DNA from: a plasmid
DNA length: 35,268 bases
Direction: 5' to 3' (one strand)
Sequence record: NZ_CP016375.1
In this document: positions 163 through 35,268 of the stretch, piece after piece
Layout: every line of letters starts with the position of its first letter
How positions within the stretch are numbered: position 1 is the first letter of the stretch
The notes under the pieces: model-generated
The model's input: only the letters and a program-made list of their open reading frames with translations
Database searches by the model: none
Told to the model about the DNA's origin: nothing
Translations under genes and position numbers: made by a program

Positions 163-1272
163 TTATTTTTTTAATTCTGGAAAAACCTTCTCATATAGAT
201 AACCACCAAGATTTTTTATTGATTCATGTGTTTTATTATCAAACCATATTTTCATGCGGTAGTATTTTGATTCTACATCATCGATGTATCTATTAAAAGT
301 TACTGCATCATTGAATCTTTTAAACATTAGATCTGAACCAATCCTTTGTAATAAAAACATAATTTGACTTTTATTTAAGCCATAATCTTGGAAATAGGTA
401 AGAGCATTTTTATCCTCACGAGAAAGATTCTCTTCATCAAGTCGTTTCTGGAAAGTAAAAACTAGTCCTGTTATCTTTCTCCCAGTTTTAATGGGTTCAT
501 AACGAATATTTGATATGTCAAGCTTATTATTACTATTAAAAGCTTCTATTGCTGGATCTAAAAAGACACGTTTAAATTCTCCCCAAACTTGCAAATATTC
601 TACCCTTTTATAGTTTTCAGGAATTGTTTCATTTTCAAACAGTAACTTTAACTGCATTTGAGGCGTTTCTTCCTGATTATCTAAATCTGATTTATACTCA
701 TATTCAATAAAACCTAATAAGGTTTTTAATTCTTCGAGAGACACTCTATATAATCCAGTTTTTTTATACTGAGACAGTAGTTCAAATAGTTTTTTCCGGT
801 TATCTCCTTTTAGATCGATAATATTGCTTTCTATTTGAGTATATTGTATTTTAGAGGTGTTTGCATATTCTAATGCAAATTTTTCATAAAAAAAGATCTT
901 TCCAAAATTGGCAAAAGTTACTGTAAATTCATTAGGATTAAGTTCACTAGCCTCTACATTATCAATAAGATTAAAAAATACAGTAGAAGCAGTTAACTTA
1001 TTATAGAAAGCCCCGTTAATACGTGTTAAACCATCACATAAAGCCAAAACTTGTTTTGCTGAATATGTGTTCTTTTTAATTTCAATTTTTTTATATTTTA
1101 AAAAATTTTCATAATTGAATACTACTTTTCCCGTTGGATTGGGGTCATTAAACTCAATTACATTTTGAAGATAATATATAATGTCTTTTTGAAATTCAGA
1201 TGCGTCCCTAAGAATGCTTTTGGTAAATAGATTCGACTGAATTAAATAATTTTTTTTATTTGAAGATTCCAT
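163..1272 (-). CDS. repA: Rep_3-family plasmid replication initiator (iteron-binding, two winged-helix domains). The ORF is open to 1449, but the start is placed at the internal Met (MESSNKKNYLIQSNLF...) by family resemblance.
   Basis: N-terminus NKKNYLIQSNLF resembles the Rep_3 N-terminus (NLVVKSNELI). The central 'LYRVSLEELKTLLG' and C-terminal 'VFLDPAIEAFN...IKTGRKITGLVFTFQ' match Rep_3 hallmark blocks (VLDPAIEEIN...KKGRKIxGIxFxF). It sits next to the iteron array. Confidence 0.85.
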   Translation of the reverse strand: MESSNKKNYLIQSNLFTKSILRDASEFQKDIIYYLQNVIEFNDPNPTGKVVFNYENFLKYKKIEIKKNTYSAKQVLALCDGLTRINGAFYNKLTASTVFFNLIDNVEASELNPNEFTVTFANFGKIFFYEKFALEYANTSKIQYTQIESNIIDLKGDNRKKLFELLSQYKKTGLYRVSLEELKTLLGFIEYEYKSDLDNQEETPQMQLKLLFENETIPENYKRVEYLQVWGEFKRVFLDPAIEAFNSNNKLDISNIRYEPIKTGRKITGLVFTFQKRLDEENLSREDKNALTYFQDYGLNKSQIMFLLQRIGSDLMFKRFNDAVTFNRYIDDVESKYYRMKIWFDNKTHESIKNLGGYLYEKVFPELKK

Positions 1273-1375
1273 AATCTTTTTGTCTTTGATTTTTTTGTAT
1301 CTTTGATACGCAAAAGAGATAATATAACGTCTCGATTTAAAAATAGGGAGGTTGTCTAATGGCAGCCTCTTTAAT

Positions 1376-1933
1376 TTATGGGAAATCCAATGTTGGATAT
1401 TGTCCTGGTCTTTCTTTTTTGAATATAAATTTTTCTGCTGTAAAATCACCTAACATAATTTCGTTTTCAACAATCTGATGTCCTTTACTTAAATAATACT
1501 CAAACAAAGCCTTTCTGCCATTTAAAATCGCATCCTGGTATATTTTGTCGGGAATTGAAATATAATCCTCGTATTGCTCTAAAATGACCTTATTCGACAT
1601 ATTTATGCCTCTAGCAATATCAAATCCATTTCTTTTAAAGAGAAAATTTAGTATTAATCCATTTCCTTTCGAATTTGGTTTATATTTCAAATATAACCGT
1701 ACTGCAGGAATTTCAATGGTTAGATGATTATAAAAAGTACCTACAATTTCTTTTGTGGTTTTTCTCTTGGCCACAAAATAATCCCATTTATCCGCATGCA
1801 AATGATTAAGATTTGTAACAACTTTTGATAATCCACAATTTGAATTGTGCCAAACATATTGGCTCGAGCTTTTAGACTTATCTCTAAAGCGCATGAAAAT
1901 TTCAATTGTATATCTTTTATCCTTACTTGCCAT
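1376..1933 (-). CDS. Hypothetical protein, co-transcribed upstream of rep. The ORF is open to 1996; start taken at MASKDKRY.
   Basis: Long ORF with codon usage like its neighbours. It overlaps the upstream gene's stop by 11 nt when starting at Met22. No motif recognised. Confidence 0.5.
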   Translation of the reverse strand: MASKDKRYTIEIFMRFRDKSKSSSQYVWHNSNCGLSKVVTNLNHLHADKWDYFVAKRKTTKEIVGTFYNHLTIEIPAVRLYLKYKPNSKGNGLILNFLFKRNGFDIARGINMSNKVILEQYEDYISIPDKIYQDAILNGRKALFEYYLSKGHQIVENEIMLGDFTAEKFIFKKERPGQYPTLDFP

Positions 1934-2180: not shown

Positions 2181-2191
2181 ACTCAATATTT

Positions 2192-2302
2192 TTATTCGCA
2201 AAATAAGCTTCCGGAAGAGCTGCAGCTTTTACAATTTGTTCGCGTTTTTAAATTAGGCCTTTCCGGATCTGGAACCGGTCTAAAAATTTTTGCGAACAAA
2301 AA
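2192..2302. repeat. Structured intergenic repeat, copy 1 (TTATTCGCAAAAT ... AATTTGTTCGC ... TTTTTGCGAACAAAA; terminal inverted 13-mers).
   Basis: Shares its architecture and the motifs TTCGCAAAA / TTGTTCGC / TTTTGCGAACAAAA / cttccgga[ag]..ctgcagc with copies at 14414-14525, 17067-17176 and 34793-34905. Confidence 0.8.
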
Positions 2303-2303
2303 A

Positions 2304-2762
2304 TTAGAACTTTCCTTTATATTGTTTCTCTAGCGCAGAAATTATTTCGTGAGCTAATTCCATTCTTGTGTATTCTAAATTTTCCTCTTTATAGATTTTA
2401 TGGTAAATAAAATCATTGAGGAAATTAGTGTCTTCTCTGGAAAGATGTGCAGAGGAATCTTTAATTTCAATATCATCAAGTCTACTTTTTTTGCTTCTTC
2501 TTCCGTTTTTAAAATTAGTTTTCTCCATCCCTCTTTCAATATCTGGATATTTTTTTTCGAGTAGTCCTATTCCTTCCGAAATGGCTTTACTTAAATTATA
2601 ATCCATGTTATGTTCTTTGAGCATCTTATAGTTTCTGAATTTTATAAGCTTTTCATAATCATCAAAATACATTCTAAGAATATAATTTTTTGTTATTACT
2701 TCACTTTTAATATCGTTATTAGAATTAAAATCCTCTAATCTGAAATCATTATTACTCATCAC
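2304..2762 (-). CDS. Partition partner / TraB-like small protein downstream of ParA (possible ParB-function adaptor).
   Basis: Position immediately 3' of parA with a 1-nt overlap. It is highly charged and of the size (152 aa) typical of the protein following ParA-like TraA in Bacteroidetes conjugative elements. No recognisable ParB box by eye. Confidence 0.45.
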   Translation of the reverse strand: MMSNNDFRLEDFNSNNDIKSEVITKNYILRMYFDDYEKLIKFRNYKMLKEHNMDYNLSKAISEGIGLLEKKYPDIERGMEKTNFKNGRRSKKSRLDDIEIKDSSAHLSREDTNFLNDFIYHKIYKEENLEYTRMELAHEIISALEKQYKGKF

Positions 2763-3511
2763 TATATATTTATTTCTTTTAAAATTTCTGTTGCAAGGTC
2801 ATTAAAGTCAAGGCTAGCTCTTGAATGCGGAGCTACTTGAAAAATCGTTTTTCCTTCTTTTTTTGCATTCTCCACATTGACATCTTGTCTAATGAAAGAT
2901 GTTAGAAAATAGTTTCTGGCCTGGGCATTTGCCTTTTCTGTATACTCCCGGAAGTTTCTCGTATTAGTAAGTACTTTATTAAAGAAAAATCCTAAAAATT
3001 TAAGCTTATTATTATGTTCTTTTATAATTCTTTGTATGCTTGGGAATAACTCGTTAATTCCCTCAATAGAATACATTTCTGCCTCAATTGGGCTTATAAC
3101 GTAATCAGAACAAGATAATGCCATTTCTCCAAGGCCTAAACCTCCGGTTAACGGCCGAGGCGGGCAATCAATAATTACAAAATCCAAATTCATTTTACTA
3201 TTAAGAAAATCAATTCGTTCTTTTAATTCATATCTGGAATATTTATCTTTTTCAATATTCCGATCTCCTGCCAAAATAAATAAATTATCTTTTTTTTGAG
3301 TGAGCCTAAAATCTCCGGTTTTATCTAAAAAATTTTTAATTGTATAAGGATAGTCACGATCAATTCTATACCCCATTGACAAGTTCCTTTGAGCGTCAAA
3401 ATCAATCTGCAGAACTTTATAACCCATTTCGGAAAATGAAGCTCCTAAATGAATTGAGGTAGTTGTTTTTCCTACCCCTCCTTTCTCGGTAATTATGGAT
3501 AATATTTTCAT
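2762..3511 (-). CDS. parA: ParA/Soj-family partition ATPase
   Basis: Deviant Walker A 'KGGVGKTTT' at residues 10-18 and overall ParA architecture (249 aa). Confidence 0.9.
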   Translation of the reverse strand: MKILSIITEKGGVGKTTTSIHLGASFSEMGYKVLQIDFDAQRNLSMGYRIDRDYPYTIKNFLDKTGDFRLTQKKDNLFILAGDRNIEKDKYSRYELKERIDFLNSKMNLDFVIIDCPPRPLTGGLGLGEMALSCSDYVISPIEAEMYSIEGINELFPSIQRIIKEHNNKLKFLGFFFNKVLTNTRNFREYTEKANAQARNYFLTSFIRQDVNVENAKKEGKTIFQVAPHSRASLDFNDLATEILKEINI

Positions 3512-4315: not shown

Positions 4316-4342
4316 AATGATTAAAGTATTTTAAAACTAACT

Positions 4343-4666
4343 TTATTTATTTAGATCATTTATAAAAAATTTTAGAAGAGCTTTATCATAACCTATCTCT
4401 TTGAGATATTGAATAAAGTTTTCAAATTTTTGAATCCATCTCTCTTCCATAGATAAAGCAGAATTCATTATACTAAGGCCACTCATATATCTCGGAGATT
4501 CATAAGACCCTAAAAATTTAGTTTTGTATTCCTCCTCAAATTTATTAGCATCTACTTTTGTTAAATCTTTTGATTTCATTTTTTTATAGACAGTATCAAG
4601 GAATTGTATTAATTCTTCATCCTGATTTCCGAATTCCAAATCTTCAAACGGTTTTGTTTTTTTCAT
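4343..4666 (-). CDS. Hypothetical protein (107 aa)
   Basis: ORF on the same strand as the block. Confidence 0.4.
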   Translation of the reverse strand: MKKTKPFEDLEFGNQDEELIQFLDTVYKKMKSKDLTKVDANKFEEEYKTKFLGSYESPRYMSGLSIMNSALSMEERWIQKFENFIQYLKEIGYDKALLKFFINDLNK

Positions 4667-4804
4667 AGTATGTGATTTATGATGTAGTAAAAATATTAAT
4701 AATAAATATATAAAGCAAATATAAAATCACTTTATTTAATTTAAAAATACTATATATTAAGGGTTTATTATAGATAAATAGTATCTGTAGTGTGAAGCAT
4801 AATT

Positions 4805-5363: not shown

Positions 5364-5720
5364 TTATGGGAATACAACAATTTCTCCAAAAGAATATAAT
5401 TTAAGTTCATCATATTTAAAATCAAAGATGTCTATCACTTCACTAAATAAAATTTTCCCCTTTCCATTATCACAAATTAAAGAGAAATGGCAAATTTTGG
5501 GTTCAAGCCTTTTTAAATTCCAAATCTGAAATTTTTCGACTATTGGTATATTTTTCTGATTGGATCTAATAGAAAAAATCATTTTCCTAATATCATCACA
5601 TTCATCAATTAATTGCTTAACTCCTATTGTAATATTAATATCTAAGAATCTATACAATTCCCATTTTGAATGGGAACGTATAAAATTTTTATTCGCTGAA
5701 TTTACTTTTATTTTAGGCAT
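5364..5720 (-). CDS. Hypothetical protein (118 aa)
   Basis: ORF immediately downstream of ardC on the same strand. Confidence 0.45.
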   Translation of the reverse strand: MPKIKVNSANKNFIRSHSKWELYRFLDINITIGVKQLIDECDDIRKMIFSIRSNQKNIPIVEKFQIWNLKRLEPKICHFSLICDNGKGKILFSEVIDIFDFKYDELKLYSFGEIVVFP

Positions 5721-5751
5721 ATTTAAATATATAAAGTATTTATAAAATCAC

Positions 5752-6654
5752 TTAATTAAGAAAAGATTCCATGTATTTTTTAGATTTCTTTGCATCTGAA
5801 AAAGCTTTTTTCAGTTCTTCAGCTCTTTCATCTTTATTTGTAAAGGTGGCCGACCAACTTTTCAAATATCTCACGCTGTTAATAAACTCCTCATGTATTC
5901 CAAACTGTAAACAAAGAAGCATAGAGCCTATTTCAGCTACGAGTTCTTCACTACTATAAGATAAAGTTCTGTTTAATCTTGTCGGGTGCATTGTCCAGTG
6001 CGTAAGCTCATGGAATAAAGTAGAGTAATAAGCCGTTTCATTTACAAATTGTTTTTTAATGGGCATTTTTACTTTATCTAAAACCTTGTTATAACTTGCG
6101 CTGCGGGTCATACATTCATATACTTTCAAATTACCTTTTTTAATGAGAGTAATAATAAAATTTTCTGCTTGCTTTAGTTCCTGAAAATCTTCTAAAAAAT
6201 CTTCTTTTATCTCCATATTCAGCTCTTCCCTATTTTCAATATCATCAAAATTGAAAACATTATAAGAACGCAGAAAATAATATTTTTTATAATTGGATCT
6301 TTCAGATTCGGGAATTTGTTTAAATTGATCAGCACTAATTTTTTTTCCTGTCTCCTTATGGGTATAAATAAAGTTTCCGTATTGGATCAAAGAAGATTTT
6401 GAACCTTTCTTTAATTTTCCTCCGGCTTTAGAAATTGCGTTAAAGGTTGCAAAAAGATTTGTTTTTCTTTTTCTGACAATCATATTCAGATAAAGAGAAA
6501 TAGCGTTCTCACCATTATAAAAAGCCTGTGAAAATCCATTTTGAGGCATTTTAAAATCTTTAATATACATTTCCCAATCCTGGGCGTTTACTTCGTCTAA
6601 CATATCAATAATAGAAGTAAAAAATTTATCTTGAATTTGTGTTTGAGTAGCCAT
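5752..6654 (-). CDS. ardC: ArdC-like antirestriction protein (N-terminal ssDNA-binding domain plus C-terminal zincin-like HExxH metalloprotease)
   Basis: C-terminal 'LFHELTHWTMHP' carries an HExxH motif in the ArdC/DUF1738 arrangement. Size is 300 aa. It sits beside an SSB-like gene in a leading-region-like context. Confidence 0.75.
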   Translation of the reverse strand: MATQTQIQDKFFTSIIDMLDEVNAQDWEMYIKDFKMPQNGFSQAFYNGENAISLYLNMIVRKRKTNLFATFNAISKAGGKLKKGSKSSLIQYGNFIYTHKETGKKISADQFKQIPESERSNYKKYYFLRSYNVFNFDDIENREELNMEIKEDFLEDFQELKQAENFIITLIKKGNLKVYECMTRSASYNKVLDKVKMPIKKQFVNETAYYSTLFHELTHWTMHPTRLNRTLSYSSEELVAEIGSMLLCLQFGIHEEFINSVRYLKSWSATFTNKDERAEELKKAFSDAKKSKKYMESFLN

Positions 6655-7071: not shown

Positions 7072-7129
7072 AACGTTAGATTTAAAAAATTAATAATATT
7101 TGATATTTAATATATAAAGTGATTTTATA

Positions 7130-7450
7130 CTAATTATATTTAGTTTCCATTTCTTTAGTTTCTAAAAAGAAATCTATTTCTTCTAAATAGTCCTTATCTT
7201 CCCAAGGTTCATCTTTAAACATGTTTTCAAACTCATCTGTTAATTCTTCTGCCAGGTCATAAATGCCTCCTGTTCCCTGCTGATTATGTCTTTTCCAAGC
7301 TAGCCCCTTTTCATTTTCCATTTGTTTACCCAGTGTCATACTAATGACGCAATGAGTTTCGAGGTAAGAAGCAATATCATTTGGAAATTTACATTTTATA
7401 TAATTTAAGCGGTTGATATTTTTTTTATGCTTCTTTTTTTCTTTATTCAT
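7130..7450 (-). CDS. Hypothetical protein with a strongly acidic C-terminal half (106 aa)
   Basis: ORF. The C-terminus 'DLAEELTDEFENMFKDEPWEDKDYLEEIDFFLETKEMETKYN' is D/E-rich. Confidence 0.45.
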   Translation of the reverse strand: MNKEKKKHKKNINRLNYIKCKFPNDIASYLETHCVISMTLGKQMENEKGLAWKRHNQQGTGGIYDLAEELTDEFENMFKDEPWEDKDYLEEIDFFLETKEMETKYN

Positions 7451-7543
7451 AATTGGATATTTAAAAGTTAGTAAATTTTATTTTTAAGCTAAAAACATAT
7501 AAAGTAATTTTTAAGTTACTTTATATGTTTAAGAATCTCTATA

Positions 7544-7798
7544 TTAATATTCAATTTGATTCATGTTATACAGCATTTCTTTGCTTATAAAAATAATTTC
7601 ATCTTTTCTATCGGTTAATAAATTTATCAATTCAGTATAGGCAAAATAATTGTCAGAAATTAATTTTCCTGTTTTATAAAACATCTTTACCGATGCGTTT
7701 TCGTCACTTTCTTCTATGTCACAATAAAAATGATAGTCAGAAGTTTGCAAGTGAAGTAAAAAATTGGGTTTTGATTCTAAGTAAATTAAATCTTTCAT
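7544..7798 (-). CDS. Hypothetical protein (84 aa)
   Basis: ORF on the same strand as the block. Confidence 0.4.
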   Translation of the reverse strand: MKDLIYLESKPNFLLHLQTSDYHFYCDIEESDENASVKMFYKTGKLISDNYFAYTELINLLTDRKDEIIFISKEMLYNMNQIEY

Positions 7799-7831
7799 AA
7801 CTGTATATTATGTTTTTATAATCACTTTATA

Positions 7832-8593
7832 TTAATAAGAAGAAGACCAATTTAAAGGCTTTCCATTGTAAATAGTGGCGGTTTGCACTTCGTTAATGTT
7901 TATAGATGCGTATTTTGTTAATCTTCTTTCAAATGGCTCTCCTTTCTTTATTTCAGGGTTGGCAATACATGTTCCAGAATCTTGTCGCTCGTAGGTTCTT
8001 GTTTGTCCAATTTCTTGCAAAATCAATTTTGAGTTTTTGCGCTCCAATACTAGATAAAAATTAATGTTGGTTTGCTCATATCCCCAATCTGAATATAAGA
8101 TTGTTCCTTTCTGAATAGTATCGCTTATTGCTTTTTTACTTTCTATAAAACTTAAATTCTTCTCATATTTATCTAGTATTATTTTTTTTATGTTATTAAT
8201 ACCAACCTCTCTAATATCTTCAGCCGTTGCACGGTTAAAATAAGTTGGTTTAGTTTTTCTACCTGTAAAAATCAAAGAATAGTAATAGGTATCTTTTTCA
8301 AATGTGATTATTGTACTATCTAAATAAGTAAAGTTATTAATGTTAGTAGCTTCTTTAGTATAACTATCAATAGTTAGTTGTCTTTTGTCTATTGTATTCA
8401 TAATAATAAATTTTAATGTTTTTGATTGCTTTGATATAGGAAATCTGGGTTCTTCTGGAAGTTGGTAACTTCGATAAGATTTGATAGAAATTTCCTTGTG
8501 TTGTGTGTTTGTTTTTTCGGTGATGTCAAAGAACTTCTGCTGTCTGCTTGCTTCGCTTATGAGGTCTCGGGTTTTCTGTGCCAATTGACCCAA
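7832..8593 (-). CDS. Hypothetical protein (253 aa; an alternative start at MNTIDKRQL would give 7832..8401)
   Basis: Long ORF. No motif recognised. Confidence 0.45.
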   Translation of the reverse strand: MGQLAQKTRDLISEASRQQKFFDITEKTNTQHKEISIKSYRSYQLPEEPRFPISKQSKTLKFIIMNTIDKRQLTIDSYTKEATNINNFTYLDSTIITFEKDTYYYSLIFTGRKTKPTYFNRATAEDIREVGINNIKKIILDKYEKNLSFIESKKAISDTIQKGTILYSDWGYEQTNINFYLVLERKNSKLILQEIGQTRTYERQDSGTCIANPEIKKGEPFERRLTKYASININEVQTATIYNGKPLNWSSSY

Positions 8594-8599
8594 GAAATC

Positions 8600-9260
8600 A
8601 GAGCTGTATACAAAACCGAAATGAATATGCAGGCTTAGAAAACTTTTTGCCGAAGGCTCGGGAGGTTCTGAAAAAAAATTTCAGTAGAGTAGCGGAAGAA
8701 ATTATTTTTTGGAGACCCAAAAAGTTTTTTTTGTGTTCAGCCTGGTTTCTAGATTTGCACCAAGAATAACCAAGAGCTTATGAGTGAAGTGAGGAAATAG
8801 CCTAGAAGTTACATCACCGGGAAAATGAATACAGAATACTTTAGGAAATATCAAATCTTAAAGAAGTCCAACACATAATAAAAAAATAAAATTCCATCGT
8901 GTAGGCCATAAGATAGGGGAGGGGATAGGACCAGAAAAATTTTGAAAAAATATCTGGTCCTATAAAAGGAATCTTATGCCTGGGGACTGACTGCGTTAAA
9001 GATCGCAGCAATTGTCTGAAATCCTTTTTTCGTGAGAAATAGATAAATAAAAAAGTCCAAAAAAGATTAATGAAAAAAGATTGAGTGCGAAGAGCTTGCC
9101 CGTAGGGAACGCCCTGAATATTATAACCAAAGAAAATGATAAAATATTCCCTGATATGAAAAAGCTACAATAGAAAATGCTAAAAATTACAAAAGAAGTT
9201 GCTAAACTACATTAGTTAGTACTAAAAATACAGAAGAAGCTGCAAAAAAAGAAAGAAGAA
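8600..9260. other. Second non-coding island (~650 bp) with locally elevated GC and hairpins, upstream of the ssb-ardC gene block
   Basis: No ORF over 63 aa. There is a perfect 10-bp stem ATAGGACCAG-n18-CTGGTCCTAT (~8925-8962) and several other palindromes. Confidence 0.35.
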
Positions 9261-9263
9261 AAC

Positions 9264-9596
9264 TTATTTTTTCAAAAATTTAAAAAGCTCTGCCATTTGC
9301 TTACTAAAAACTTCTGCAGTTTCTTTATCGGTAATATTAATAATAATATGCCCAGTAGCACTGTCATTATTTTCCACATTAATAAACTTAATGCCTTTGT
9401 TGTCTTCGGTAAACAAATCTTTAATTTCCACTTCGAAAAGCTCTGCAAGCTGAGGAATATATTTTGATTTAACGTCGGCATCTTCACTTTCCCAACTCAT
9501 ATAAGTATTTTTACTCACACCCATTTTATCAGCTACATCCTGTTGAGAAAGCTTAGTTTTACTTCTAAATCGTCTTAAATTAGTACCAACGCCCAT
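9264..9596 (-). CDS. XRE-family helix-turn-helix transcriptional regulator. The ORF is open to 9626; start taken at MGVGTNLRRFR.
   Basis: HTH_3 signature 'LRRFRSKTKLSQQDVADKMGVSKNTYMSWE'. Confidence 0.75.
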   Translation of the reverse strand: MGVGTNLRRFRSKTKLSQQDVADKMGVSKNTYMSWESEDADVKSKYIPQLAELFEVEIKDLFTEDNKGIKFINVENNDSATGHIIINITDKETAEVFSKQMAELFKFLKK

Positions 9597-9740
9597 TTTG
9601 TAAAGTTTATGATAACAAATATACATAAAGCAAAAAAAACTGCGCTAAAATCGCTCAATTTTCTTGTCTCAATTCAAATAATAAAATCCTAATTTTAAAT
9701 CATTAAATCGAGATTAAGTATATATTAGAATGTGAAAAAG

Positions 9741-9775
9741 AATCGCTCTCCAAATTGGAGAGCGATTTTATTTTA
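9741..9775 (+). terminator. Orphan rho-independent-terminator-like hairpin in the divergent intergenic region
   Basis: aatcgctctcc-aaatt-ggagagcgatt followed by ttattttaaaa. Confidence 0.35.
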
Positions 9776-9979
9776 AAAGAGAAAATATTACACATTTCAA
9801 TTTAACATAATAAATAAAAGTCAACAAAACTTACCTAAGTTATTATTTTAGACAACTTTAATATTGTTTTATTGAATATATTTTATACATTAGCAATGAT
9901 TCTAATGAAATTAAGAATCACACCAAAGAGCGGAATCCGAAAAGCTAACGAGTAGGAAAAAATTTAAATTACAAAAAAA

Positions 9980-10225
9980 ATGAAAAAATTAGACGGTCTA
10001 AAAAATGGTTTTTCAACATTAGACAATGAAAAATTAAAAAATGTAAGAGGTGGATTACTATCTCCGGAAGATGGAGGAGGAAAAGTATCTATTAGATCAA
10101 ACATTACAAGAGAGGATGGAGCTGTAGAAACAGATGTTTACGATAGAGCACCAGATGGAACTCTTATCAATGGTAGAAGGTCTTGGGTATTGATGCAAGA
10201 ACCCTCAGTTACGGTAGAGCCATAA
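9980..10225 (+). CDS. RiPP precursor peptide with a Bacteroidetes double-glycine-type leader (MKKL...EKLKNVRGG) and a 56-aa Cys-free, S/T/D/E-rich core
   Basis: Leader matches the GG-Bacteroidetes natural-product precursor pattern (MKKLxxLKxxxxxLxxxELKxIxGG). It lies immediately upstream of an ATP-grasp/SPASM maturase operon and is followed by a strong terminator. Confidence 0.7.
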   Translation: MKKLDGLKNGFSTLDNEKLKNVRGGLLSPEDGGGKVSIRSNITREDGAVETDVYDRAPDGTLINGRRSWVLMQEPSVTVEP

Positions 10226-14398: not shown

Positions 14399-14413
14399 AA
14401 GATTGTATCAAAT

Positions 14414-14525
14414 TTATTCGCAAAATCAACACCTGGAAGATCTGCAGTTTTTGAAGTTTGTTCGCATTTTTTTGCTAAGCTCTTCCGGATCTGAAACCGG
14501 TACAAAAATTTTTGCGAACAAAAAC
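14414..14525. repeat. Structured intergenic repeat, copy 2
   Basis: TTATTCGCAAAATcaacacctggaagatctgcag...gtttgttcgca...cttccggatctgaaaccgg...TTTTTGCGAACAAAA. On the minus strand it reads ...GTGTTGattttgcgaaTAAATTTGatacaatcttATG, a Bacteroidetes-style -33 TTG / -7 TAnnTTTG arrangement just upstream of the transglycosylase start. Confidence 0.8.
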
Positions 14526-14527
14526 AC

Positions 14528-14731
14528 CTAGATTATAAAAATCTCATTTTCTTCAATTAAGAAAACCCGGCATTGAATATGTTTGCCATAAAGATTAAAA
14601 GAGTAATTATCTCCTACCTTCGGCATCTTTTCTGGACGATAGATTTCAGTCCTCCGGGTCACTATAAACCTCTTAAGTTCTAGCTCTAAACTGGAAGCAT
14701 CAATAATCTGTTTAATAATAAATTCTTTCAT
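14528..14731 (-). CDS. Hypothetical small protein (67 aa)
   Basis: ORF only. Confidence 0.3.
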   Translation of the reverse strand: MKEFIIKQIIDASSLELELKRFIVTRRTEIYRPEKMPKVGDNYSFNLYGKHIQCRVFLIEENEIFII

Positions 14732-14874
14732 CTTTTTGCCTTAAAATTAAATTGAAGCTCCAAGAAAAAATTACGCATTTCCGTAAAAGTAATATTTCTT
14801 TATATTTGGACTATTAATCTATCTATTTTCCAAATAGGCAATTTGGTGTTAAGGTAGCAGTAAACTGCTACCTT

Positions 14875-15018
14875 TTATTTTTTCATTTCACCTCTAATCT
14901 TTTTATCTCCGATAGTAACTACTTTATCGGTTGAGAGATTCTTAGCAATTTCTTTCGCTATTCTCTCTAAATCTTCCTGCTTAGGCACAAATAATTCTGG
15001 TTTTGGATACTTTTTCAT
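14875..15018 (-). CDS. Possible unannotated 47-aa ORF (MKKYPKPELFVPKQEDLERIAKEIAKNLSTDKVVTIGDKKIRGEMKK)
   Basis: Read by hand on the minus strand. Absent from the ORF track. Confidence 0.2.
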   Translation of the reverse strand: MKKYPKPELFVPKQEDLERIAKEIAKNLSTDKVVTIGDKKIRGEMKK

Positions 15019-15198
15019 AATTCAATAATTTTCAATATTTTATATTTAATGATTTAACATAAAGTAGATTATAGAAAGTCTATCTCTTTTGGACTTCTCC
15101 TAATTATCAACCTGTTAGCTTTTTTCCCGCCCCGGGGGTTAGGGAATATTTAATTTTTAGTCCAAAGAGATAATTATTCCGCATTCATAACTAGCGTT

Positions 15199-15468
15199 TT
15201 AGTCTTCCTTATTTATATAAAAAATGAGAGTTATAAAATTACTTTGTTGAGTATTTATCATTGTTGATGTCCAATCCTCTGTATACTTAATATATTTTTG
15301 TGTTTTGTAATAAAACTCTCTTATAGCTATTGGTGTAATTTGTGTAAAGAAATTTAATTCTAAGTCAATAAATAATGCAGTATCACTAGTTGAAATTTCA
15401 ATATTAACTTTTCCATTAATTCCAAAATAATTTTTGGCTTCAAAATATATGTTATCTATGTATTTCAT
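15199..15468 (-). CDS. Hypothetical protein (89 aa)
   Basis: ORF only. Confidence 0.35.
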   Translation of the reverse strand: MKYIDNIYFEAKNYFGINGKVNIEISTSDTALFIDLELNFFTQITPIAIREFYYKTQKYIKYTEDWTSTMINTQQSNFITLIFYINKED

Positions 15469-15478
15469 TTATATAGAT

Positions 15479-15766
15479 TTAAGGATGTTTAAAATTATCC
15501 AGATGAAAGCTTATCTCTAATACTTTATTATTCGCTTTTATACCGATCGCTGCTGCTTCCCAATTAACATACGGGTAGGGCAGTAGGTCATTTGTTTTGT
15601 TACAAAAGTCCCTCAAGAGCCATAGAGGGGTCGTAGGCGGAACGTTTTTATACTGGCTGATAAGTCTTAATAATAACCTCGTATTGTTGGACTGCAACTT
15701 TACCTCTGTTTTAGACAAAAACAGTTCATCTGCTATGGCGTGGATTTTTGCTAAATTTTCCTTCAT
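15479..15766 (-). CDS. Hypothetical protein (95 aa)
   Basis: ORF. Its stop overlaps the start of the next gene. Confidence 0.4.
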   Translation of the reverse strand: MKENLAKIHAIADELFLSKTEVKLQSNNTRLLLRLISQYKNVPPTTPLWLLRDFCNKTNDLLPYPYVNWEAAAIGIKANNKVLEISFHLDNFKHP

Positions 15767-15993
15767 TATTTACTTTTACTCACTTCTTCAATTGAAGCGA
15801 CCTCCCATTTATAAATAGTCAAATTATCATTCCCGTATGCTATTATTCCGGAAGAAAAATCACCTTTGATAACAGCTCCCTTTTTTTCTTTTATCTCATA
15901 GTACTTTTTTGCGCCAAAATTGAGCATAAGATAATCTATAACTAGTACTACTACCAATACGGCTACTATTGTACCTAAAATCTTTTTTTTCAT
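15766..15993 (-). CDS. Small membrane protein (75 aa, one TM helix)
   Basis: Hydrophobic 'ILGTIVAVLVVVLVIDYLML'. Confidence 0.4.
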   Translation of the reverse strand: MKKKILGTIVAVLVVVLVIDYLMLNFGAKKYYEIKEKKGAVIKGDFSSGIIAYGNDNLTIYKWEVASIEEVSKSK

Positions 15994-16011
15994 ATTATCA
16001 TTTTTGGATTA

Positions 16012-16371
16012 TTATACTATTGTTAAGTCCGTTTGCCTAAGAGCATTCTTGTAATAACAAGAACCATCTATTTTTATAAATTTATCCTCTTCCTCATAAA
16101 AGAATCCTGACACTTGATTAGCAGAAGTACTCCATAATGAATCTGCATTGAAAAAATAAAGCGAACCCTGATAAATTACTTTTCCTTGCTTTTTTAATAA
16201 GGAAACAGCTTTATTATCATCTTCAATTTGATTTATATAGTAAGAAAGCATTTTAATTAGAAAAACAACACCTAAAATTATTATAATCACTAAGCATAGG
16301 GTTTCGTTTTCGTTAAAAAAATTGATTAGACCTGATAATTGGGTGTCAATTTGTAATACATTTGATTTCAT
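16012..16371 (-). CDS. Membrane protein (119 aa, one TM helix)
   Basis: Hydrophobic 'LCLVIIIILGVVFLIKML'. Confidence 0.4.
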   Translation of the reverse strand: MKSNVLQIDTQLSGLINFFNENETLCLVIIIILGVVFLIKMLSYYINQIEDDNKAVSLLKKQGKVIYQGSLYFFNADSLWSTSANQVSGFFYEEEDKFIKIDGSCYYKNALRQTDLTIV

Positions 16372-16425
16372 AATTTGTGATTTTAATAAGTTATTTTATA
16401 ATTGTTATGAGGCTAATTCATATAG

Positions 16426-16746
16426 CTAAGAAAACATTTTCATGAGAGTATCAATAATTTCTTCTTGTGTGTGCTTATCCAAACTGGCCATCTTTGCTTT
16501 CAATCTTCTCTTATCCACAGATCTCAAATGATCTAAAGCAACCTGCCCCTTTTTACCCTCAACCCTGCAGTTTACTCTCATTGGATATGGCTTTATTGTA
16601 GACGTCAAAGGGGCTATAATTACTGTATTTAAAGCATTATTCATTTCGTCCGGAGAAATTATCACACACGGTCTGATCTTATTGATTTCACTACCTACAG
16701 TAGGATTTAGATCGATAAAGAAAACATCAAATCTTTTAATTACCAT
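16426..16746 (-). CDS. pemK: PemK/MazF-family type II toxin (endoribonuclease)
   Basis: 'RPCVIISPDEMN...VIIAPLTS' are classic PemK/Kid blocks. It overlaps the upstream antitoxin gene. Confidence 0.85.
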   Translation of the reverse strand: MVIKRFDVFFIDLNPTVGSEINKIRPCVIISPDEMNNALNTVIIAPLTSTIKPYPMRVNCRVEGKKGQVALDHLRSVDKRRLKAKMASLDKHTQEEIIDTLMKMFS

Positions 16747-16988
16747 GTCCACTCTGTTTTGTCAAACTCATTCTCAAAATCTTCTAAAAACTCTGTATCT
16801 TCTAAAGATTTAGCTTTTAGCAACATTTCTTCCCAGCCTGCGCGGGGATTACTCTTAACCGCTTCAATTATTATTTTAGAATCTTCGATGGATAAAGAAA
16901 CTTCTTCTTTAACTTCGGCTTGTTCTAACAGCTTCTTTCCAATAATAATTCCGAAGGAGTTACCTATTTTTCTAACTTTTGTTTTCAT
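16740..16988 (-). CDS. pemI: PemI/MazE-family antitoxin (AbrB/SpoVT fold)
   Basis: 'KVRKIGNSFGIIIGKKLL' swapped-hairpin motif with an acidic C-terminus, immediately 5' of the toxin. Confidence 0.8.
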   Translation of the reverse strand: MKTKVRKIGNSFGIIIGKKLLEQAEVKEEVSLSIEDSKIIIEAVKSNPRAGWEEMLLKAKSLEDTEFLEDFENEFDKTEWTW

Positions 16989-17066
16989 AATTTAAAGTTA
17001 TAACATTATTATAACATACACAAAAAAAATAAGCACTTTTATTAGTGCTTATTTTCTAACTATTTT

Positions 17067-17176
17067 TTATTCGCAAAATTAACACCTGGAAGATCTGCAG
17101 CTTTCATAATTCGTTCGCATTTTTTAATCCAGGTTTTCCAGATCCAAAAGATATCCAAAAAATTATGCGAACAAAA
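17067..17176. repeat. Structured intergenic repeat, copy 3
   Basis: TTATTCGCAAAATtaacacctggaagatctgcagctttcataattcgttcgca...ccagatcc...TTATGCGAACAAAA. The central 35 bp are nearly identical to copy 4. Confidence 0.8.
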
Positions 17177-17178
17177 CC

Positions 17179-22382: not shown

Positions 22383-23055
22383 TAGATGTGTTTACATCAT
22401 TCTTAAGCTCTTCATCTATCTTATCCGTCTTCGCTATTTTTTCCAAATCTTCTGTAAAATTGGTAATTAAGAAACCATAGGGGTTATAAGGATAATTTCT
22501 ATTTGTCTCTACTAAAGTCATATTAACCTTTGCATTATAGTACTCTTCCTGATCTCCATTAACTCGAGTTATCCTAACGACAAAAGATGCATTATATGGA
22601 GGTTGGTTTGATAACTGCAGGGTATTTTGTAAAATATAAGCAGATTGCTTTAGCCCCTGCATAGTCATAAACAAATCAAAATACCCCTTAGAAGCTCTAT
22701 CCTTTATAACTTTTGTGGGCTGTTCTCCTACAAGCCAATAAACACGCTCTCTTTTTCTTTTCATAGAGTAACTATCCAAATCATAATATTGACTTACAAA
22801 ATACTCTATATCGGCTTTGGCCTGAATTCGTTTTCCTTCTTCATTCTCGAGCTTCTTAAGAGGAACCATATTTCCACTCTCTGAAATCCCATAGATATTA
22901 TTAGAACTCATTTGGTAAACAGAAATAACCTGATAAGCAGAGGCAAAAATCACCACTATACCTATAATTACTACCGCCCAAAGGGTTTTGTTATATTTTT
23001 TAAGAACAGCATAAAAATCCATTCCGTAGCTTATTTTCTTATTATTATCACTCAT
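22342..23055 (-). CDS. traK: TraK-like (VirB8-like) T4SS protein
   Basis: Single N-terminal TM segment, about 237 aa, located between TraJ and TraM. Confidence 0.6.
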   Translation of the reverse strand: MSDNNKKISYGMDFYAVLKKYNKTLWAVVIIGIVVIFASAYQVISVYQMSSNNIYGISESGNMVPLKKLENEEGKRIQAKADIEYFVSQYYDLDSYSMKRKRERVYWLVGEQPTKVIKDRASKGYFDLFMTMQGLKQSAYILQNTLQLSNQPPYNASFVVRITRVNGDQEEYYNAKVNMTLVETNRNYPYNPYGFLITNFTEDLEKIAKTDKIDEELKNDVNTSNEAINQNPKENGQ

Positions 23056-24376: not shown

Positions 24377-26877
24377 TATGCTGTGATTTTAAAGGTTTTT
24401 TCAACAAATTGAGTAATTAAATAATCTCCGACCTTAGATTCATCTTCATTTTCTTGTTTTACAACATCAGCCCACTCAATAACAATTTTTTCTTTCTCCA
24501 TAATGATATCAATAGCCTGTTCCATTGTCATATCAGGATCGGAATTATAGATTTTCATTAAAACAGAATTTAGTAATCCTTCGGTTTGATAAGCCCAGAA
24601 TACTTTTCTTGGCACTTCTAATCGATACACTCCAAATTGTTTTCCTCTCTTTATAAAAACTTCGGAATGTGGATGCACCGGATCACTATATTTGTTTTCC
24701 AAGCTTTCCATTTGGTAGAGGGCATGAGTAGAAAGCCCGAATCGTTCCTGAATAGCTTTATAATTTGCTCCGGAAAGAACAAACATAACTTCGCAGTTAT
24801 CAATAATTGATAGAGAAGCCGGATTATCTTTGGGCAACTGATTTATGGTCTGTAAAACCAAGAACAAAGCACCTTCCTGTTTTCTAATTGCTTGGAAAAG
24901 CCATTCCGCCTGACGTAGCATTCCTTCCCATTTCAATAACTCCGCAAACTCTTCCAAGAATACATATCCTCTGGTAGATTTATCCCTCCAAATAACCCTC
25001 TTAATCGTTGTATTAATTACCTTTAACATTAGGGTAACCAATAATTGATTATCCCGGATTTTATCTAATTCAAATACAACAAGTTTTTTATTATAAAGTT
25101 CAGCTCCATAAGAAAGCCCAGTTTCGCTATTATACAAGAAGCTATATAAACCATTATCTACAAACTCAGACATCATCAGTACAAACTCATCATCATCAAA
25201 AAATTCTTTTTTGATATCTAAAAGAGGAAGCAGATCTTTTCTGTATTTAATAAAATTCTTCACGAAATGTGGTAAAGAATGACCTGTACTAAAATTATCA
25301 TAATAGTGATCTAAGATTCTACGTAAAGACGCTTTTTCCTGTTGATTCATTCTATTGTCAACCCTTTTAAAATGCACCTCTATGAAATCCAAAAGCTCTT
25401 CAATTTTATCTGCAGATACCTGTTCCCCGTCTACTAATTCAAAAGGATTTATTCCTAAATTATCTCCCTCGTTATAACTTATATAAGCAACATCATTAGG
25501 AAAAATCGCTGCTAACTTCTGATAACTACCTCCAAGATCAATAATGACATTCCTGTAATTATTGGCCAAAGCAAAAGCTGAAATATGGTTAGTATTAAAA
25601 GACTTCCCCCCTCCGGTTTTGGTAATAATTACCCCACTTCTGGAATCCATGTATTTTTTTGCTGAATCCCATAAATCGACAATTACAGGGGTATTATCTA
25701 ATCGTGAATTATAAAGCACTCCGACAGAATCATTTTTGTATCTCCCGGTATTTAGTAAAAATGAACTAAATACCTCCGTTGTCGCCACATAAACATGCTC
25801 ATCTAAAAACATGGAGGCATTTAGTGGATAACTAAACTCATATTGCGCCAATAAATTATCACCATAAGGTCTTTCTGCTATAATATCTAATTCTTTAAAC
25901 CTTTCCGAAGTAGTATTCATTCTTCTTTCCAATTCCTCTTCATCTTTACCAAAAATGATAACACTATTATATCCTCTAATAAGGCGAGTATGAGATTGGT
26001 TCTCGGTAAGGTCGAGAATCATTTCAGAAGTTTTATCAAACCAATGTTGATTCCCTGGGTCAAATCTTCTATAATCCCTAAACTGATTATTCGTTTTTTT
26101 GAGCTTATTGAGATGAACATCTTTCTTATCAATGAATGCAATCTGGTTATAGATATGGGTAAACGGTAAATCAAAAGAAAAATTATCCCCATAGTTTTTA
26201 AAGAAAGTATAGTTATCTTTTGTTTTTTCACCATCCTTAATACAGGTTTTAAACTTTTCCGGAAAATTTTGCTCATGTGGAAATCTAAGAAGTGATCCAT
26301 ACTGATTCCCTATTCTGATGTGTGACCATTCTTTTTTAATCTCTGTTTTATAGTTTGTATTTAGTCCACTGAATATCAACTCGTAATATTTGTTTAAATA
26401 GTCCTTTTCTAAAGGTTCTATTACAATTCTATTATTATTCTTTAATCTAACATTTCTAAGGTAAGAGACACATTCATTTACTGCAGGAATAAATGAATTA
26501 ATTTTTTCGTCAAACTCCTGAAATTCTTTTTTTACAGCAGGCCGAAACGGATTTTTAAGTTTAGAAAAATTGATATCCTCATTCTTTTTGATAAAGAAAA
26601 TATTAGTAACATGATTTAAAAAATCCATGCCATTATAGTAATCTTTGGTAGATTTTTGAATAAAGTTTTTTTCAGGAAATCCAGATGTATCAAATTTATC
26701 TTCGGTGAAAATATCCTGTTTAAAAAATACTGAACCATCCGGTAAATCTCTTAGAGCTTTCGCCCATAAAGCATTGAGCTCGTCATAATCATCCTCTCCT
26801 AACGAATAACGTTCCGGAAGAATTATCCTGTATCCGAGCATAAAATTACCGCTATGTCCAAAACTATAATTTTCCAT
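24376..26877 (-). CDS. traG: TraG-family conjugation ATPase (VirB4 homologue)
   Basis: 833 aa, Walker A 'TKTGGGKSF'. Size and position match the Bacteroidetes TraG/VirB4. Confidence 0.9.
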   Translation of the reverse strand: MENYSFGHSGNFMLGYRIILPERYSLGEDDYDELNALWAKALRDLPDGSVFFKQDIFTEDKFDTSGFPEKNFIQKSTKDYYNGMDFLNHVTNIFFIKKNEDINFSKLKNPFRPAVKKEFQEFDEKINSFIPAVNECVSYLRNVRLKNNNRIVIEPLEKDYLNKYYELIFSGLNTNYKTEIKKEWSHIRIGNQYGSLLRFPHEQNFPEKFKTCIKDGEKTKDNYTFFKNYGDNFSFDLPFTHIYNQIAFIDKKDVHLNKLKKTNNQFRDYRRFDPGNQHWFDKTSEMILDLTENQSHTRLIRGYNSVIIFGKDEEELERRMNTTSERFKELDIIAERPYGDNLLAQYEFSYPLNASMFLDEHVYVATTEVFSSFLLNTGRYKNDSVGVLYNSRLDNTPVIVDLWDSAKKYMDSRSGVIITKTGGGKSFNTNHISAFALANNYRNVIIDLGGSYQKLAAIFPNDVAYISYNEGDNLGINPFELVDGEQVSADKIEELLDFIEVHFKRVDNRMNQQEKASLRRILDHYYDNFSTGHSLPHFVKNFIKYRKDLLPLLDIKKEFFDDDEFVLMMSEFVDNGLYSFLYNSETGLSYGAELYNKKLVVFELDKIRDNQLLVTLMLKVINTTIKRVIWRDKSTRGYVFLEEFAELLKWEGMLRQAEWLFQAIRKQEGALFLVLQTINQLPKDNPASLSIIDNCEVMFVLSGANYKAIQERFGLSTHALYQMESLENKYSDPVHPHSEVFIKRGKQFGVYRLEVPRKVFWAYQTEGLLNSVLMKIYNSDPDMTMEQAIDIIMEKEKIVIEWADVVKQENEDESKVGDYLITQFVEKTFKITA

Positions 26878-32989: not shown

Positions 32990-33139
32990 AGTATATAGAA
33001 TGTGTATAGTTTCAAATTTAATAAAAATTATTTATTTTCAATACTTTAAATAAATTTAATCATAAAATATATAGAAAAAATATAGAAAATCTATATTAAT
33101 TTTTCATAATTAATTTTTAAAATACTAAAAACCAAACAG

Positions 33140-33956: not shown

Positions 33957-34754
33957 TTGTATCGTACGATACAAATTTTAATTATGAAACCAACTCTCGA
34001 ATTCTATAATTTATTCCAATTTATTTATGACTATCTGAATGAAAATTTATTTTCAAATCAACTTCCTAATTGTATGATAGTTATTACCCGAAAAAATAGA
34101 ACTTTTGGTTATTATTCAAAAGAAAGGTGGGTAAACAAGGAAAAATTAATGACTGATGAATTGGCCATTAATCCAATGTTTTTTAGTAAATATCCATTAA
34201 TTGAAATGCTGCAGACGATGGGACACGAAATGTGCCATTTATGGCAAGATCATTTCGGAAGACCTTCACGAAGAAGCTACCACAACAAAGAATGGGGAAA
34301 CAAAATGATCTCTATTGGCCTTATGCCTTCAAACACTGGAAAGCCCGGAGGAAAAAAAACGGGTCAACAAATGATGGATTACCCAATTGAAAACGGAATT
34401 TTTATAAAGACCTGTGCGGAAATGATAAAAAATCCCCTATTTGAAAAACTATGGTACGATAGAACTACTACAATCAAAATATTAAATACAAATAGCGGAA
34501 TTTCTGATCTACAGGAAGAAAAGCCAAATACGGAAGAAGAAATAATTGAATTTCTTTATTCAACTTTTACAGTAGAGCAGCCTCTACTTACATCAAGTTC
34601 TGACAGTTCTAAGAGTAAATATACCTGTCATAATTGTGATCTTAATGTTTGGGGAAAACCCCAATTATCAATTATCTGTGGTGAATGTGGAGCTGATTTT
34701 GAAGAAATCTCCATCAATTCTATAACTTTGGAATCTATTAACAATAATTTTTGA
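33957..34754 (+). CDS. SprT-like zinc metalloprotease with C-terminal zinc ribbon (the start may be at MKPTLEFYN, 33984)
   Basis: 'MTDELAINPMFF...TMGHEMCHLWQ' is an HExxH in SprT-like context. C-terminal 'CHNCD...CGECG' is a four-Cys ribbon. Confidence 0.65.
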   Translation: MYRTIQILIMKPTLEFYNLFQFIYDYLNENLFSNQLPNCMIVITRKNRTFGYYSKERWVNKEKLMTDELAINPMFFSKYPLIEMLQTMGHEMCHLWQDHFGRPSRRSYHNKEWGNKMISIGLMPSNTGKPGGKKTGQQMMDYPIENGIFIKTCAEMIKNPLFEKLWYDRTTTIKILNTNSGISDLQEEKPNTEEEIIEFLYSTFTVEQPLLTSSSDSSKSKYTCHNCDLNVWGKPQLSIICGECGADFEEISINSITLESINNNF

Positions 34755-34792
34755 AACCGCCGTCTTTCTGAAATTTGGAACTAGAACCTCAA

Positions 34793-34905
34793 TTTGTTCG
34801 CATAATCTATTCCTGGTAGATCTGCAGCTTTCATAATTCGTTCGCAATTTTTAATCTGATACTTTCAGATTCGCAGCTCAGCTAATTTTTTTTGTTCGCA
34901 AAAAA
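34793..34905. repeat. Structured intergenic repeat, copy 4 (rearranged variant)
   Basis: aaTTTGTTCGCAtaat...cctggtagatctgcagctttcataattcgttcgcaatttttaatc...TTGTTCGCAAAAAAAA. The 35-bp core is nearly identical to copy 3. Confidence 0.75.
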
Positions 34906-35105
34906 AACTCCGCCCCCTAGTGAAATTTTTTATAATCTCTTTTGGACTAATAATAAATATTAACTATACTCTACCATTTATTATCCAGGAGAAAACATTT
35001 ATATGCAGTCTATAAAACAAATGCTTTTTAAATATCAAATGTTTTATAATACATAGCTTTTTAGCCTTCGGGAGAACCTCTATTTATAGGCATTGGGAAG
35101 AATAA
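34906..35105. other. AT-rich stretch adjacent to the iterons: candidate DNA-unwinding element of the vegetative origin
   Basis: About 200 bp at well over 75% AT, with no ORF, between repeat copy 4 and the iteron array. Confidence 0.4.
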
Positions 35106-35268
35106 TAATGTAGGTCTATCCGTCATAACTATGTAGGTCTATCCGTCAAAAAGACAGCTAACTATGTAGGTCTATCCGTCAATATATTTTTATCTATGTA
35201 GGTGAATCCGCTTCAACTATGTAGGTCTATCCGCTTATTATGTAGGTGCGTCCGTCAACTATGTAGGT
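35106..35268. repeat. Iteron array, 3' half: about 7 copies of the same ~21-bp unit with more irregular 21-32 bp spacing
   Basis: ATGTAGGTCTATCCGTCA / CTATGTAGGTGAATCCGCTTCA and similar. The array runs to the last base and continues in register at base 1. Confidence 0.85.

Follow-up and report, generated by a model that had tools for sequence, protein, structure and literature searches.

The closest described parallels to the repeat modules analyzed here are found in plasmids pSM19035 and TP228. The δ/ω/parS system of pSM19035 combines a small ParA with a ribbon-helix-helix (RHH) DNA-binder and contains several dispersed binding regions that link partition, replication control, and a TA operon (PMC9499535). 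The RHH protein, ω, is a 71-aa homodimer, and its binding sites are non-palindromic, usable in either orientation, and arranged as 7–10 contiguous heptads over promoters, with at least four contiguous heptads required for ParA activation (PMC9499535). In the ParF/ParG/parH system of TP228, the ParA gene is followed by a small RHH gene, and a ~100-bp centromere lies beside the operon (PMC3130281). The parH site is present once, upstream of the operon, and is made up of dense tetramer boxes with AT spacers. Characterized RHH centromeres are contiguous repeat arrays, an organization that the modules described below do not share.

Partition sites scattered over the replicon, some of them in promoter regions, occur in the phage-plasmid N15 (four parS sites) and in RK2 (12 OB operators of KorB), where the binders are HTH proteins of the ParB family, which recognize 13–16-bp palindromes and spread or slide along DNA. 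TraY of F-like plasmids is a single-chain tandem RHH protein that acts as a relaxosome accessory at oriT and as an activator of the tra promoter; we know of no multi-copy three-box module for TraY.

The stretch of DNA analyzed in this study (hereafter the window) is a complete circular plasmid of Elizabethkingia anophelis, 35,268 bp in length. Approximately eleven 21-bp iterons (consensus AACTATGTAGGTCTATCCGYY) are located at positions 1–165 and 35103–35265 and are split by the window ends, indicating that the circular replicon was cut within its origin. Nearly all genes lie on the minus strand, and the gene content includes a Bacteroidota-type conjugation block, a grasp-with-spasm peptide locus, and pemIK, together with a minus-strand cluster comprising parA, a 152-aa ORF, a zinc-ribbon ORF, a 185-aa ORF, and rep. 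A four-copy family of ~110-bp elements had been described in the initial annotation of the window, and we confirmed it at the same positions by both a repeat search and nhmmer (Table 1). The repeat search returned four co-oriented copies of 112 nt (family D2) with 65–81% identity to copy 1, while an nhmmer profile trained on these same four copies recovered them with E-values of 7e-35 to 3e-30 and gave no further full-length match in the window. The motif TGCGAAY occurs 17 times in the window against 4.3 ± 1.8 expected (0 of 100 shuffles reached 17), and 12 of the 17 occurrences fall inside the four copies, which make up 1.3% of the window. The repeat family is genuine and goes beyond chance.

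Table 1. Positions of the modules and associated features in the 35,268-bp window.
Feature	Position	Strand	Remarks
Candidate binder	2304..2762	-	152 aa; two ribbon-helix-helix repeats in one chain (predicted fold)
ParA-type Walker ATPase	2762..3511	-	249 aa; without extra N-terminal domain
Module copy 1	2191..2302	-	Boxes A 2291-2298, B 2237-2244 (CGCGAAC variant, CGCGAACA), C 2193-2200
Module copy 2	14413..14524	-	Boxes A 14513-14520, B 14459-14466, C 14415-14422
Module copy 3	17066..17177	-	Boxes A 17166-17173, B 17112-17119, C 17068-17075
Module copy 4	34793..34904	-	Boxes A 34893-34900, B 34839-34846, C 34795-34802
Intrinsic terminator	17024..17057	-	Between copy 3 and pemI; kept in pEa_277-17
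Rep gene	163..1449	-	Next to iterons

Within each copy, a gap-free register places three boxes in the minus-strand order A, 54 bp, B, 44 bp, C (53/54 and 44 bp measured), each box being the 8-mer TGCGAACA or its complement TGTTCGCA, with a T-run before and an A-run after. The 6-bp half-site proposed initially is thereby replaced by an 8-mer of the form TG-NNNN-CA between T- and A-runs, while the accompanying view that the phased boxes resemble protein-binding sites is supported. In copies 1–3, box A is inverted relative to boxes B and C. In copy 4, the most diverged of the four, all three boxes are direct (TGCGAACA three times on the minus strand), with an additional TGCGAAT at 34869–34875; the 13-bp terminal inverted repeats attributed to the family are, as a result, seen in copies 1–3 and absent from copy 4.

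The first three copies occupy intergenic gaps, starting 1–3 nt past the stop of the upstream minus-strand gene (2304, 14528, and 17179). Copy 1 is situated between the stop of the 152-aa ORF, here termed the tandem-RHH gene, and the zinc-ribbon gene, whose ATG (2180) is 11 nt away. Copy 2 separates ORF 14528..14731 from the lytic transglycosylase gene, being 3 nt past the stop of the former and 15 nt short of the ATG of the latter (14398). Copy 3 starts 1 nt past the stop of a 174-aa ORF and is followed by a terminator and then pemI. Copy 4 is bordered on one side by a convergent SprT-like gene, of which it adjoins the 3′ end, and on the other by the iterons, ~200 bp away.

The only relative of the window in PLSDB is the E. 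anophelis plasmid pEa_277-17 (L001; handles of this form denote related plasmids and contigs), in which the nhmmer profile gave weak full-length matches at three syntenic positions. These modules have the same architecture, with spacings of 54 and 44 bp in all three, and every box is the perfect palindrome TGCTAGCA. The motif TGCTAGC is found in pEa_277-17 at exactly nine boxes and nowhere else (18 strand matches versus 1.7 expected); one TGCTAGC in the window and one TGCGAAY in pEa_277-17 are both at chance level. The coding flanks of the two plasmids are ~85% identical up to the stop codon, compared to roughly 50–60% identity in the module. Copies 2 and 3 have syntenic counterparts at 26752–26857 and 22526–22631, respectively, of pEa_277-17, and no equivalent of copy 4 was found in that plasmid; copy 4 is present in the 98%-identical metagenome contig L027 and partly in the E. 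miricola contig L006. The equal ~2.5-kb spacing of copy pairs remarked upon in the initial annotation is not conserved, measuring 4.1 kb in pEa_277-17, which lacks copy 4.

Two further box types were observed, namely TGCAAGC, with 54/44 spacing in L014 and the E. anophelis contig NWLB01000011.1 (L037), and TGCTAAC in L016, where the outer spacing of 98 bp is the same as in the other lineages. The general box is accordingly TG-CNAR-CA, with four allelic forms (TGCGAACA, TGCTAGCA, TGCAAGC, and TGCTAAC). The spacers vary among lineages, with CTGCAG kept in the 44-bp spacer and CCGGATCT-like motifs kept in the 54-bp spacer. Boxes are switched wholesale from lineage to lineage while the exact spacing is retained. 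The earlier suggestion that one plasmid factor reads all copies is probably correct. Dispersed multi-copy modules are documented in only two plasmid lineages.

The comparison with pEa_277-17 also bears on the earlier impression that the elements are MITE-like. A MITE or other mobile repeat spread within the plasmid would agree with the small size, AT-rich ends, intergenic location, and apparent 13-bp terminal inverted repeats of copies 1–3. However, the inverted termini are absent not only from copy 4 but also from L014 and L037, and the positions are syntenic in the diverged pEa_277-17, with different box sequences. Direct reading of the flanks of the four copies revealed no target-site duplication. 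A scan of 185,579 species genomes, using a pattern that covers the window's box type alone, returned six single matches in unrelated taxa, approximately at chance level and none of them a whole element by nhmmer, and in PLSDB neither copy 1 nor the pEa_277-17 module had a blastn match to any further plasmid. We regard the mobile repeat reading as largely refuted, with next to no probability left to it; the MITE-like shape is an artifact of box orientation.

The most probable reader of the boxes is, on sequence comparison and structure prediction, the product of the tandem-RHH gene, which would represent a previously uncharacterized single-chain RHH partner of ParA. The start of this gene overlaps the parA stop, the gene order parA, RHH gene, module is conserved, and in nearly all contigs extending upstream the RHH gene follows a ParA of 249–250 aa. 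The ParA of the window matches Pfam AAA_31, CbiA, and MipZ over its full length, with NCBIfam ParA_partition as the best match, below cut-off. A module is located directly after the RHH gene in L001, L006, L007, L014, L016, L027, L037, and L038, and across independent samples the box type matches the protein type: the window, L006, L007, and L027 share the window type, L001 and L038 have the pEa type, and L014 and L037 have the P0037 type. When all window ORFs were compared to pEa_277-17 by tblastn, the 152-aa ORF was the clear outlier of the parA-rep block (47% identical), with identities of 93% for ParA, 89% for Rep, 86–89% for upstream ORFs, 76% for the 185-aa ORF, and 58% for the zinc-ribbon ORF. 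Across ten lineages, ParA identities range from 60 to 93%, versus 32–54% for the 152-aa RHH protein; the switching of the boxes co-varies with the protein that follows ParA.

Co-variation of this kind would also be seen if the RHH gene were merely hitch-hiking and the boxes were read by another protein, such as the zinc-ribbon membrane protein, the 185-aa protein, or a host factor. The first two are conserved neighbors that themselves differ between the two plasmids (58% and 76% identical, respectively), and the RHH gene may have hitch-hiked in a recombination tract, given its diverged zinc-ribbon neighbor. Against this, a membrane helix is predicted for the zinc-ribbon protein, the ribbon of which is fairly well conserved, divergence is much lower in the 185-aa protein than in the RHH protein, and a host factor would leave unexplained the three box types within one species, E. 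anophelis. The plasmid HTH protein (9264..9596), put forward initially as the binder, is an improbable candidate, being 95% identical, with an identical HTH region, where the boxes all differ. We consider a reader other than the RHH protein to be unlikely overall. Rep was rejected as the reader of the variable boxes because the iterons of pEa_277-17 are of the same type, with Rep 89% identical.

The 152-aa protein has no family match in Pfam or NCBIfam, and an exhaustive profile search recovered only ~43 clusters (50% identity) among 1.8 billion representatives. A PDB profile search returned matches to ParD (RHH) only, all non-significant, and literature searches yielded no description of the protein family or of the three-box module. 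Modeling with AlphaFold2 using 30 homologs (pLDDT 84, pTM 0.74) predicted two β-α-α units, with strands at residues 24–32 and 100–108, and because the predicted model contains two such units, one chain would constitute a built-in RHH pseudo-dimer. A pseudo-dimer chain would suit 8-bp boxes that stand alone, are asymmetric, and can be turned around at the same position. The predicted β-strands differ among the four specificity types (e.g., YILRMY/SAHLS versus ESFRMY/SCVLS), and the disordered N-terminal tail carries a conserved DF-L--F motif.

Box orientation flips without a shift of the 8-mer frame (copy 4 versus copies 1–3), which is in keeping with a pseudo-symmetric site for a protein and not with a helix in RNA. 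The possibility that the module acts as RNA, be it an intercistronic or 3′-UTR structure, a processing site, or an sRNA, arises from the position of copies 1–3 directly after stop codons, where they are probably transcribed, and from some copies folding better than shuffles (z to −2.9). The predicted folds nevertheless differ between copies, with z at ~−0.65 for copies 2 and 4 (range −0.6 to −2.9), so that the initial description of the copies as structured elements could not be upheld. In a gap-free alignment of nine modules, the helices found in at least seven of the nine are box-box pairings only and are lost where the boxes are direct, i.e., the pairs kept across lineages reflect box-box complementarity. 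RNA folding of eight modules combined with gap-free column-pair analysis gave no common structure, and an Rfam scan at gathering level gave no match at the four copies. An RNA function is, in our estimation, highly improbable.

Comparison with the known systems places the window closest to type Ib partition. As in type Ib systems, the ParA is small and lacks an N-terminal DNA-binding domain, and the gene for the candidate binder lies directly downstream in the operon. The RHH homodimer of the type is here predicted as two repeats in one chain, and in place of a contiguous repeat array we found copy 1 beside the operon, with its boxes 54 and 44 bp apart. The region ahead of the parA operon, the usual place of autoregulation in type Ib systems, contains no box. 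The window shares with pSM19035 a small ParA paired with a putative DNA-binder of the RHH class, dispersed putative binding regions, and non-palindromic sites that are usable in either orientation, but it differs in its predicted single-chain tandem RHH protein (a homodimer in pSM19035) and in its three isolated boxes, 44–54 bp apart, in place of contiguous heptads over promoters (PMC9499535). It resembles TP228 in gene order and in the ~100-bp site beside the operon (PMC3130281). Unlike parH, the modules comprise three spaced 8-mers downstream of the operon and are present in 3–4 copies per plasmid. As in N15 and RK2, several copies of one site are distributed across the replicon, although those systems have neither an RHH fold nor a three-box module. 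TraY is 20% identical to the 152-aa protein and is not encoded beside ParA. On gene content and the predicted fold, the window would be described as carrying a type Ib-like partition and regulatory system.

We infer, with moderate confidence, that the modules are centromere-like docking arrays for the 152-aa ParA partner. One chain, as a pseudo-dimer, would bind one 8-bp TG-CNAR-CA box between its T-run and A-run, with variable residues on the two β-strands reading the inner four base pairs; each plasmid lineage would thereby own a private protein/box pair. The 54/44-bp spacing (~5.1 and 4.2 helical turns), together with CTGCAG and CCGGATCT, would let three proteins assemble compactly, and the spacing with the flanking A/T-tracts suggests a bent or wrapped three-protein complex. 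The conserved spacer motifs may also bind another factor. The nucleoprotein complex formed in this way would be the partition (centromere-like) complex that engages ParA, and the N-terminal tail with its DF-L--F motif is a natural candidate for the ParA contact. With four dispersed copies, the complex could nucleate at several places, next to the par genes in one case and next to the origin in another, with copy 1 organized like a parA-parB-parS cassette, copy 4 near the origin, and copies 2 and 3 flanking an accessory region. The need for at least four contiguous heptads in ParA activation by the pSM19035 system (PMC9499535) counts against this docking-array reading, as do the lack of boxes ahead of the parA operon and the restriction of documented multi-copy dispersal to two plasmid lineages.

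Box C lies 12–15 nt from the start codon at copies 1 and 2, and because of this proximity a plausible second role of binding at these copies is repression or a roadblock, dampening transcription of the rep operon and the lytic transglycosylase gene. Taken further, the modules could serve purely as an operator array through which a global plasmid regulator controls the TA genes, the lytic transglycosylase, and the rep operon, without taking part in segregation. In three lineages, 12–13 nt separate box C of copy 1 from the zinc-ribbon ATG; at copy 2, box C adjoins both a −7-like box, TAAATTTG, and a sigma-70-like TTGATT-16-TACAAT site. The initial annotation had read this region as a −33 TTG/−7 promoter. 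The TTG is, however, 10 nt from the TAAATTTG box, and the consensus spacing in Bacteroides promoters is 19–21 nt. No −7 box is kept at copy 1 across lineages, copy 2 of pEa_277-17 is ~470 bp from the transglycosylase gene, and the gene next to copy 4 is convergent, with its 3′ end toward the module. The claim that copies closely precede minus-strand operon starts is supported for copies 1 and 2 (12–15 bp from start codons); at copy 3, a terminator stands before pemI. This terminator is conserved, its pEa_277-17 counterpart showing a compensatory C-G to T-A change in the stem, and pemIK has space for its own promoter; moreover, different TA pairs lie behind the same module (pemIK in the window, Phd/YoeB in pEa_277-17), which disagrees with copy 3 as a pemIK promoter or operator. 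A precedent for a binder that is both regulator and centromere binder is ω of pSM19035 (PMC9499535), and a separate promoter-like repeat family (D4) on the same plasmid speaks against a pure operator array. In our judgment such an array is rather unlikely, and we retain the docking-array reading, with local repression as a plausible addition.

The second intergenic repeat family (D4/D6) is found at 4696–4742, 5717–5763, 7100–7146, and 33057–33103, and also at 4322–4352, 7115–7145, and 7500–7530, with the repeats just upstream of the minus-strand gene starts 4666, 5720, 7071, and 32989. The D4 reference copy, 4696–4742, which is the copy we read, contains on the minus strand TATATTTG, a perfect Bacteroidota −7 box (TAnnTTTG), beside AAAGTGATTTT. 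From their sequence and position, the D4/D6 repeats look like the plasmid's real shared promoter/operator cassettes.

The position of copies 2 and 3 raises a further alternative, in which the modules are res-, attC-, or pdif-like sites for recombination or cassette boundaries and mark off cargo that can be exchanged. Between copies 3 and 2, the window and pEa_277-17 carry wholly different cargo, a 2.2-kb insertion borders copy 4 in L027 (98% identical to the window), and the res site of serine resolvases consists of three subsites in ~115 bp. Conversely, the boxes are single 8-mers and not paired 12-bp half-sites, the L027 insertion has direct repeats of its own (~20 bp) that bear no relation to the boxes, and a recombinase, integrase, or resolvase domain was not found in the part of the window ORFs that was scanned, nor annotated in pEa_277-17. 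On balance, we view a recombination function as very unlikely. Among specific identities, attC was rejected on the misfit of GTTCGCA and TGCGAAC to the core RYYYAAC ... GTTRRRY, with no integrase found in the scanned ORFs, and a res site was rejected on the single 8-mer boxes, with no resolvase found in the scanned window ORFs or the pEa_277-17 annotation.

With regard to the cargo itself, the region between copies 2 and 3 of the window (14528–16988) contains pemIK and five small unknown ORFs, and the corresponding region of pEa_277-17 (L001 22631–26749) contains phd/yoeB, an S24 peptidase, a Y-family polymerase (umuDC-like), and an SRAP protein. The L027 insertion (7667–9891 of that contig) encodes ORFs of 446 and 150 aa, lies at the outer edge of copy 4 (window ~34753–34790), and is flanked by imperfect direct repeats of ~17–20 bp, GGGGTTAGCTCGAAATG and GGAGTTAGCTTGAAATG. 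At the corresponding position, the E. miricola contig L006 contains ORFs of 426 and 150 aa. The insertion resembles an integrating cassette that brings along att-like repeats.

The three-box module was seen only in the sublineage around the Elizabethkingia plasmids. A module search in distant members of the protein family, namely L003 (P0021 clade), L015, L017, L018, and L024, found it absent or found another repeat, and in Riemerella (L019) and C. joostei (L020) there was no three-box module or a different repeat after the gene. A single copy with GTTAAC boxes was found in C. shandongense (L021), and an IS lies after the RHH-family gene in L026. A related-locus search with the narrow protein alignment yielded the window type and the P0021 clade only. 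Distant members of the RHH family that lack the module count against the docking-array reading; at the same time, the distribution of repeats among them would fit a fast-evolving centromere/binder pair. A more specific and considerably more tentative proposal is a Flavobacteriales partition and plasmid-identity system, built from a TraY-like single-chain tandem RHH protein and a three-box scaffold that gates the rep operon and borders cargo. Under this proposal, which describes a system not reported before, the tandem RHH protein would take the place of the dimeric centromere binder and read 8-bp boxes in a rigid 54/44-bp scaffold that wraps into a single complex; the scaffold would have been copied around the plasmid, and the four box alleles would switch as protein/site pairs.

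The maintenance of Bacteroidota plasmids is poorly characterized, and plasmids of this backbone in Elizabethkingia, Riemerella, and Chryseobacterium carry clinically relevant resistance genes; the Riemerella relative pRCAD0416RA-1, for example, carries tet(X), ermF, and floR. If the docking-array reading is true, the RHH family of ~43 clusters would represent a novel kind of ParA partner, and its centromere geometry would be new as well. The four natural protein/box allele pairs on similar backbones would provide a system for the recognition code of single-chain RHH proteins, and they would equally be suited to testing the evolution of partition specificity.

Two further observations concern other loci of the window. 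The 185-aa protein (1376–1933, minus strand) belongs to no Pfam or NCBIfam family and has homologs, 33–77% identical, in L001, L003, L015, L016, L018–L021, and L024. In every examined lineage whose sequence reaches sufficiently far past the RHH gene, the gene for the 185-aa protein follows the RHH or zinc-ribbon gene and, where rep is annotated, lies upstream of rep; the protein may be a replication or partition accessory factor. Finally, the sole match in the window at the Rfam gathering level is a DUF805b RNA motif at 9927–9958 on the plus strand (37.9 bits, E = 2e-7), located 20 nt upstream of an 81-aa ORF (9980..10225), which itself precedes the grasp-with-spasm peptide maturase genes, as annotated in pEa_277-17.
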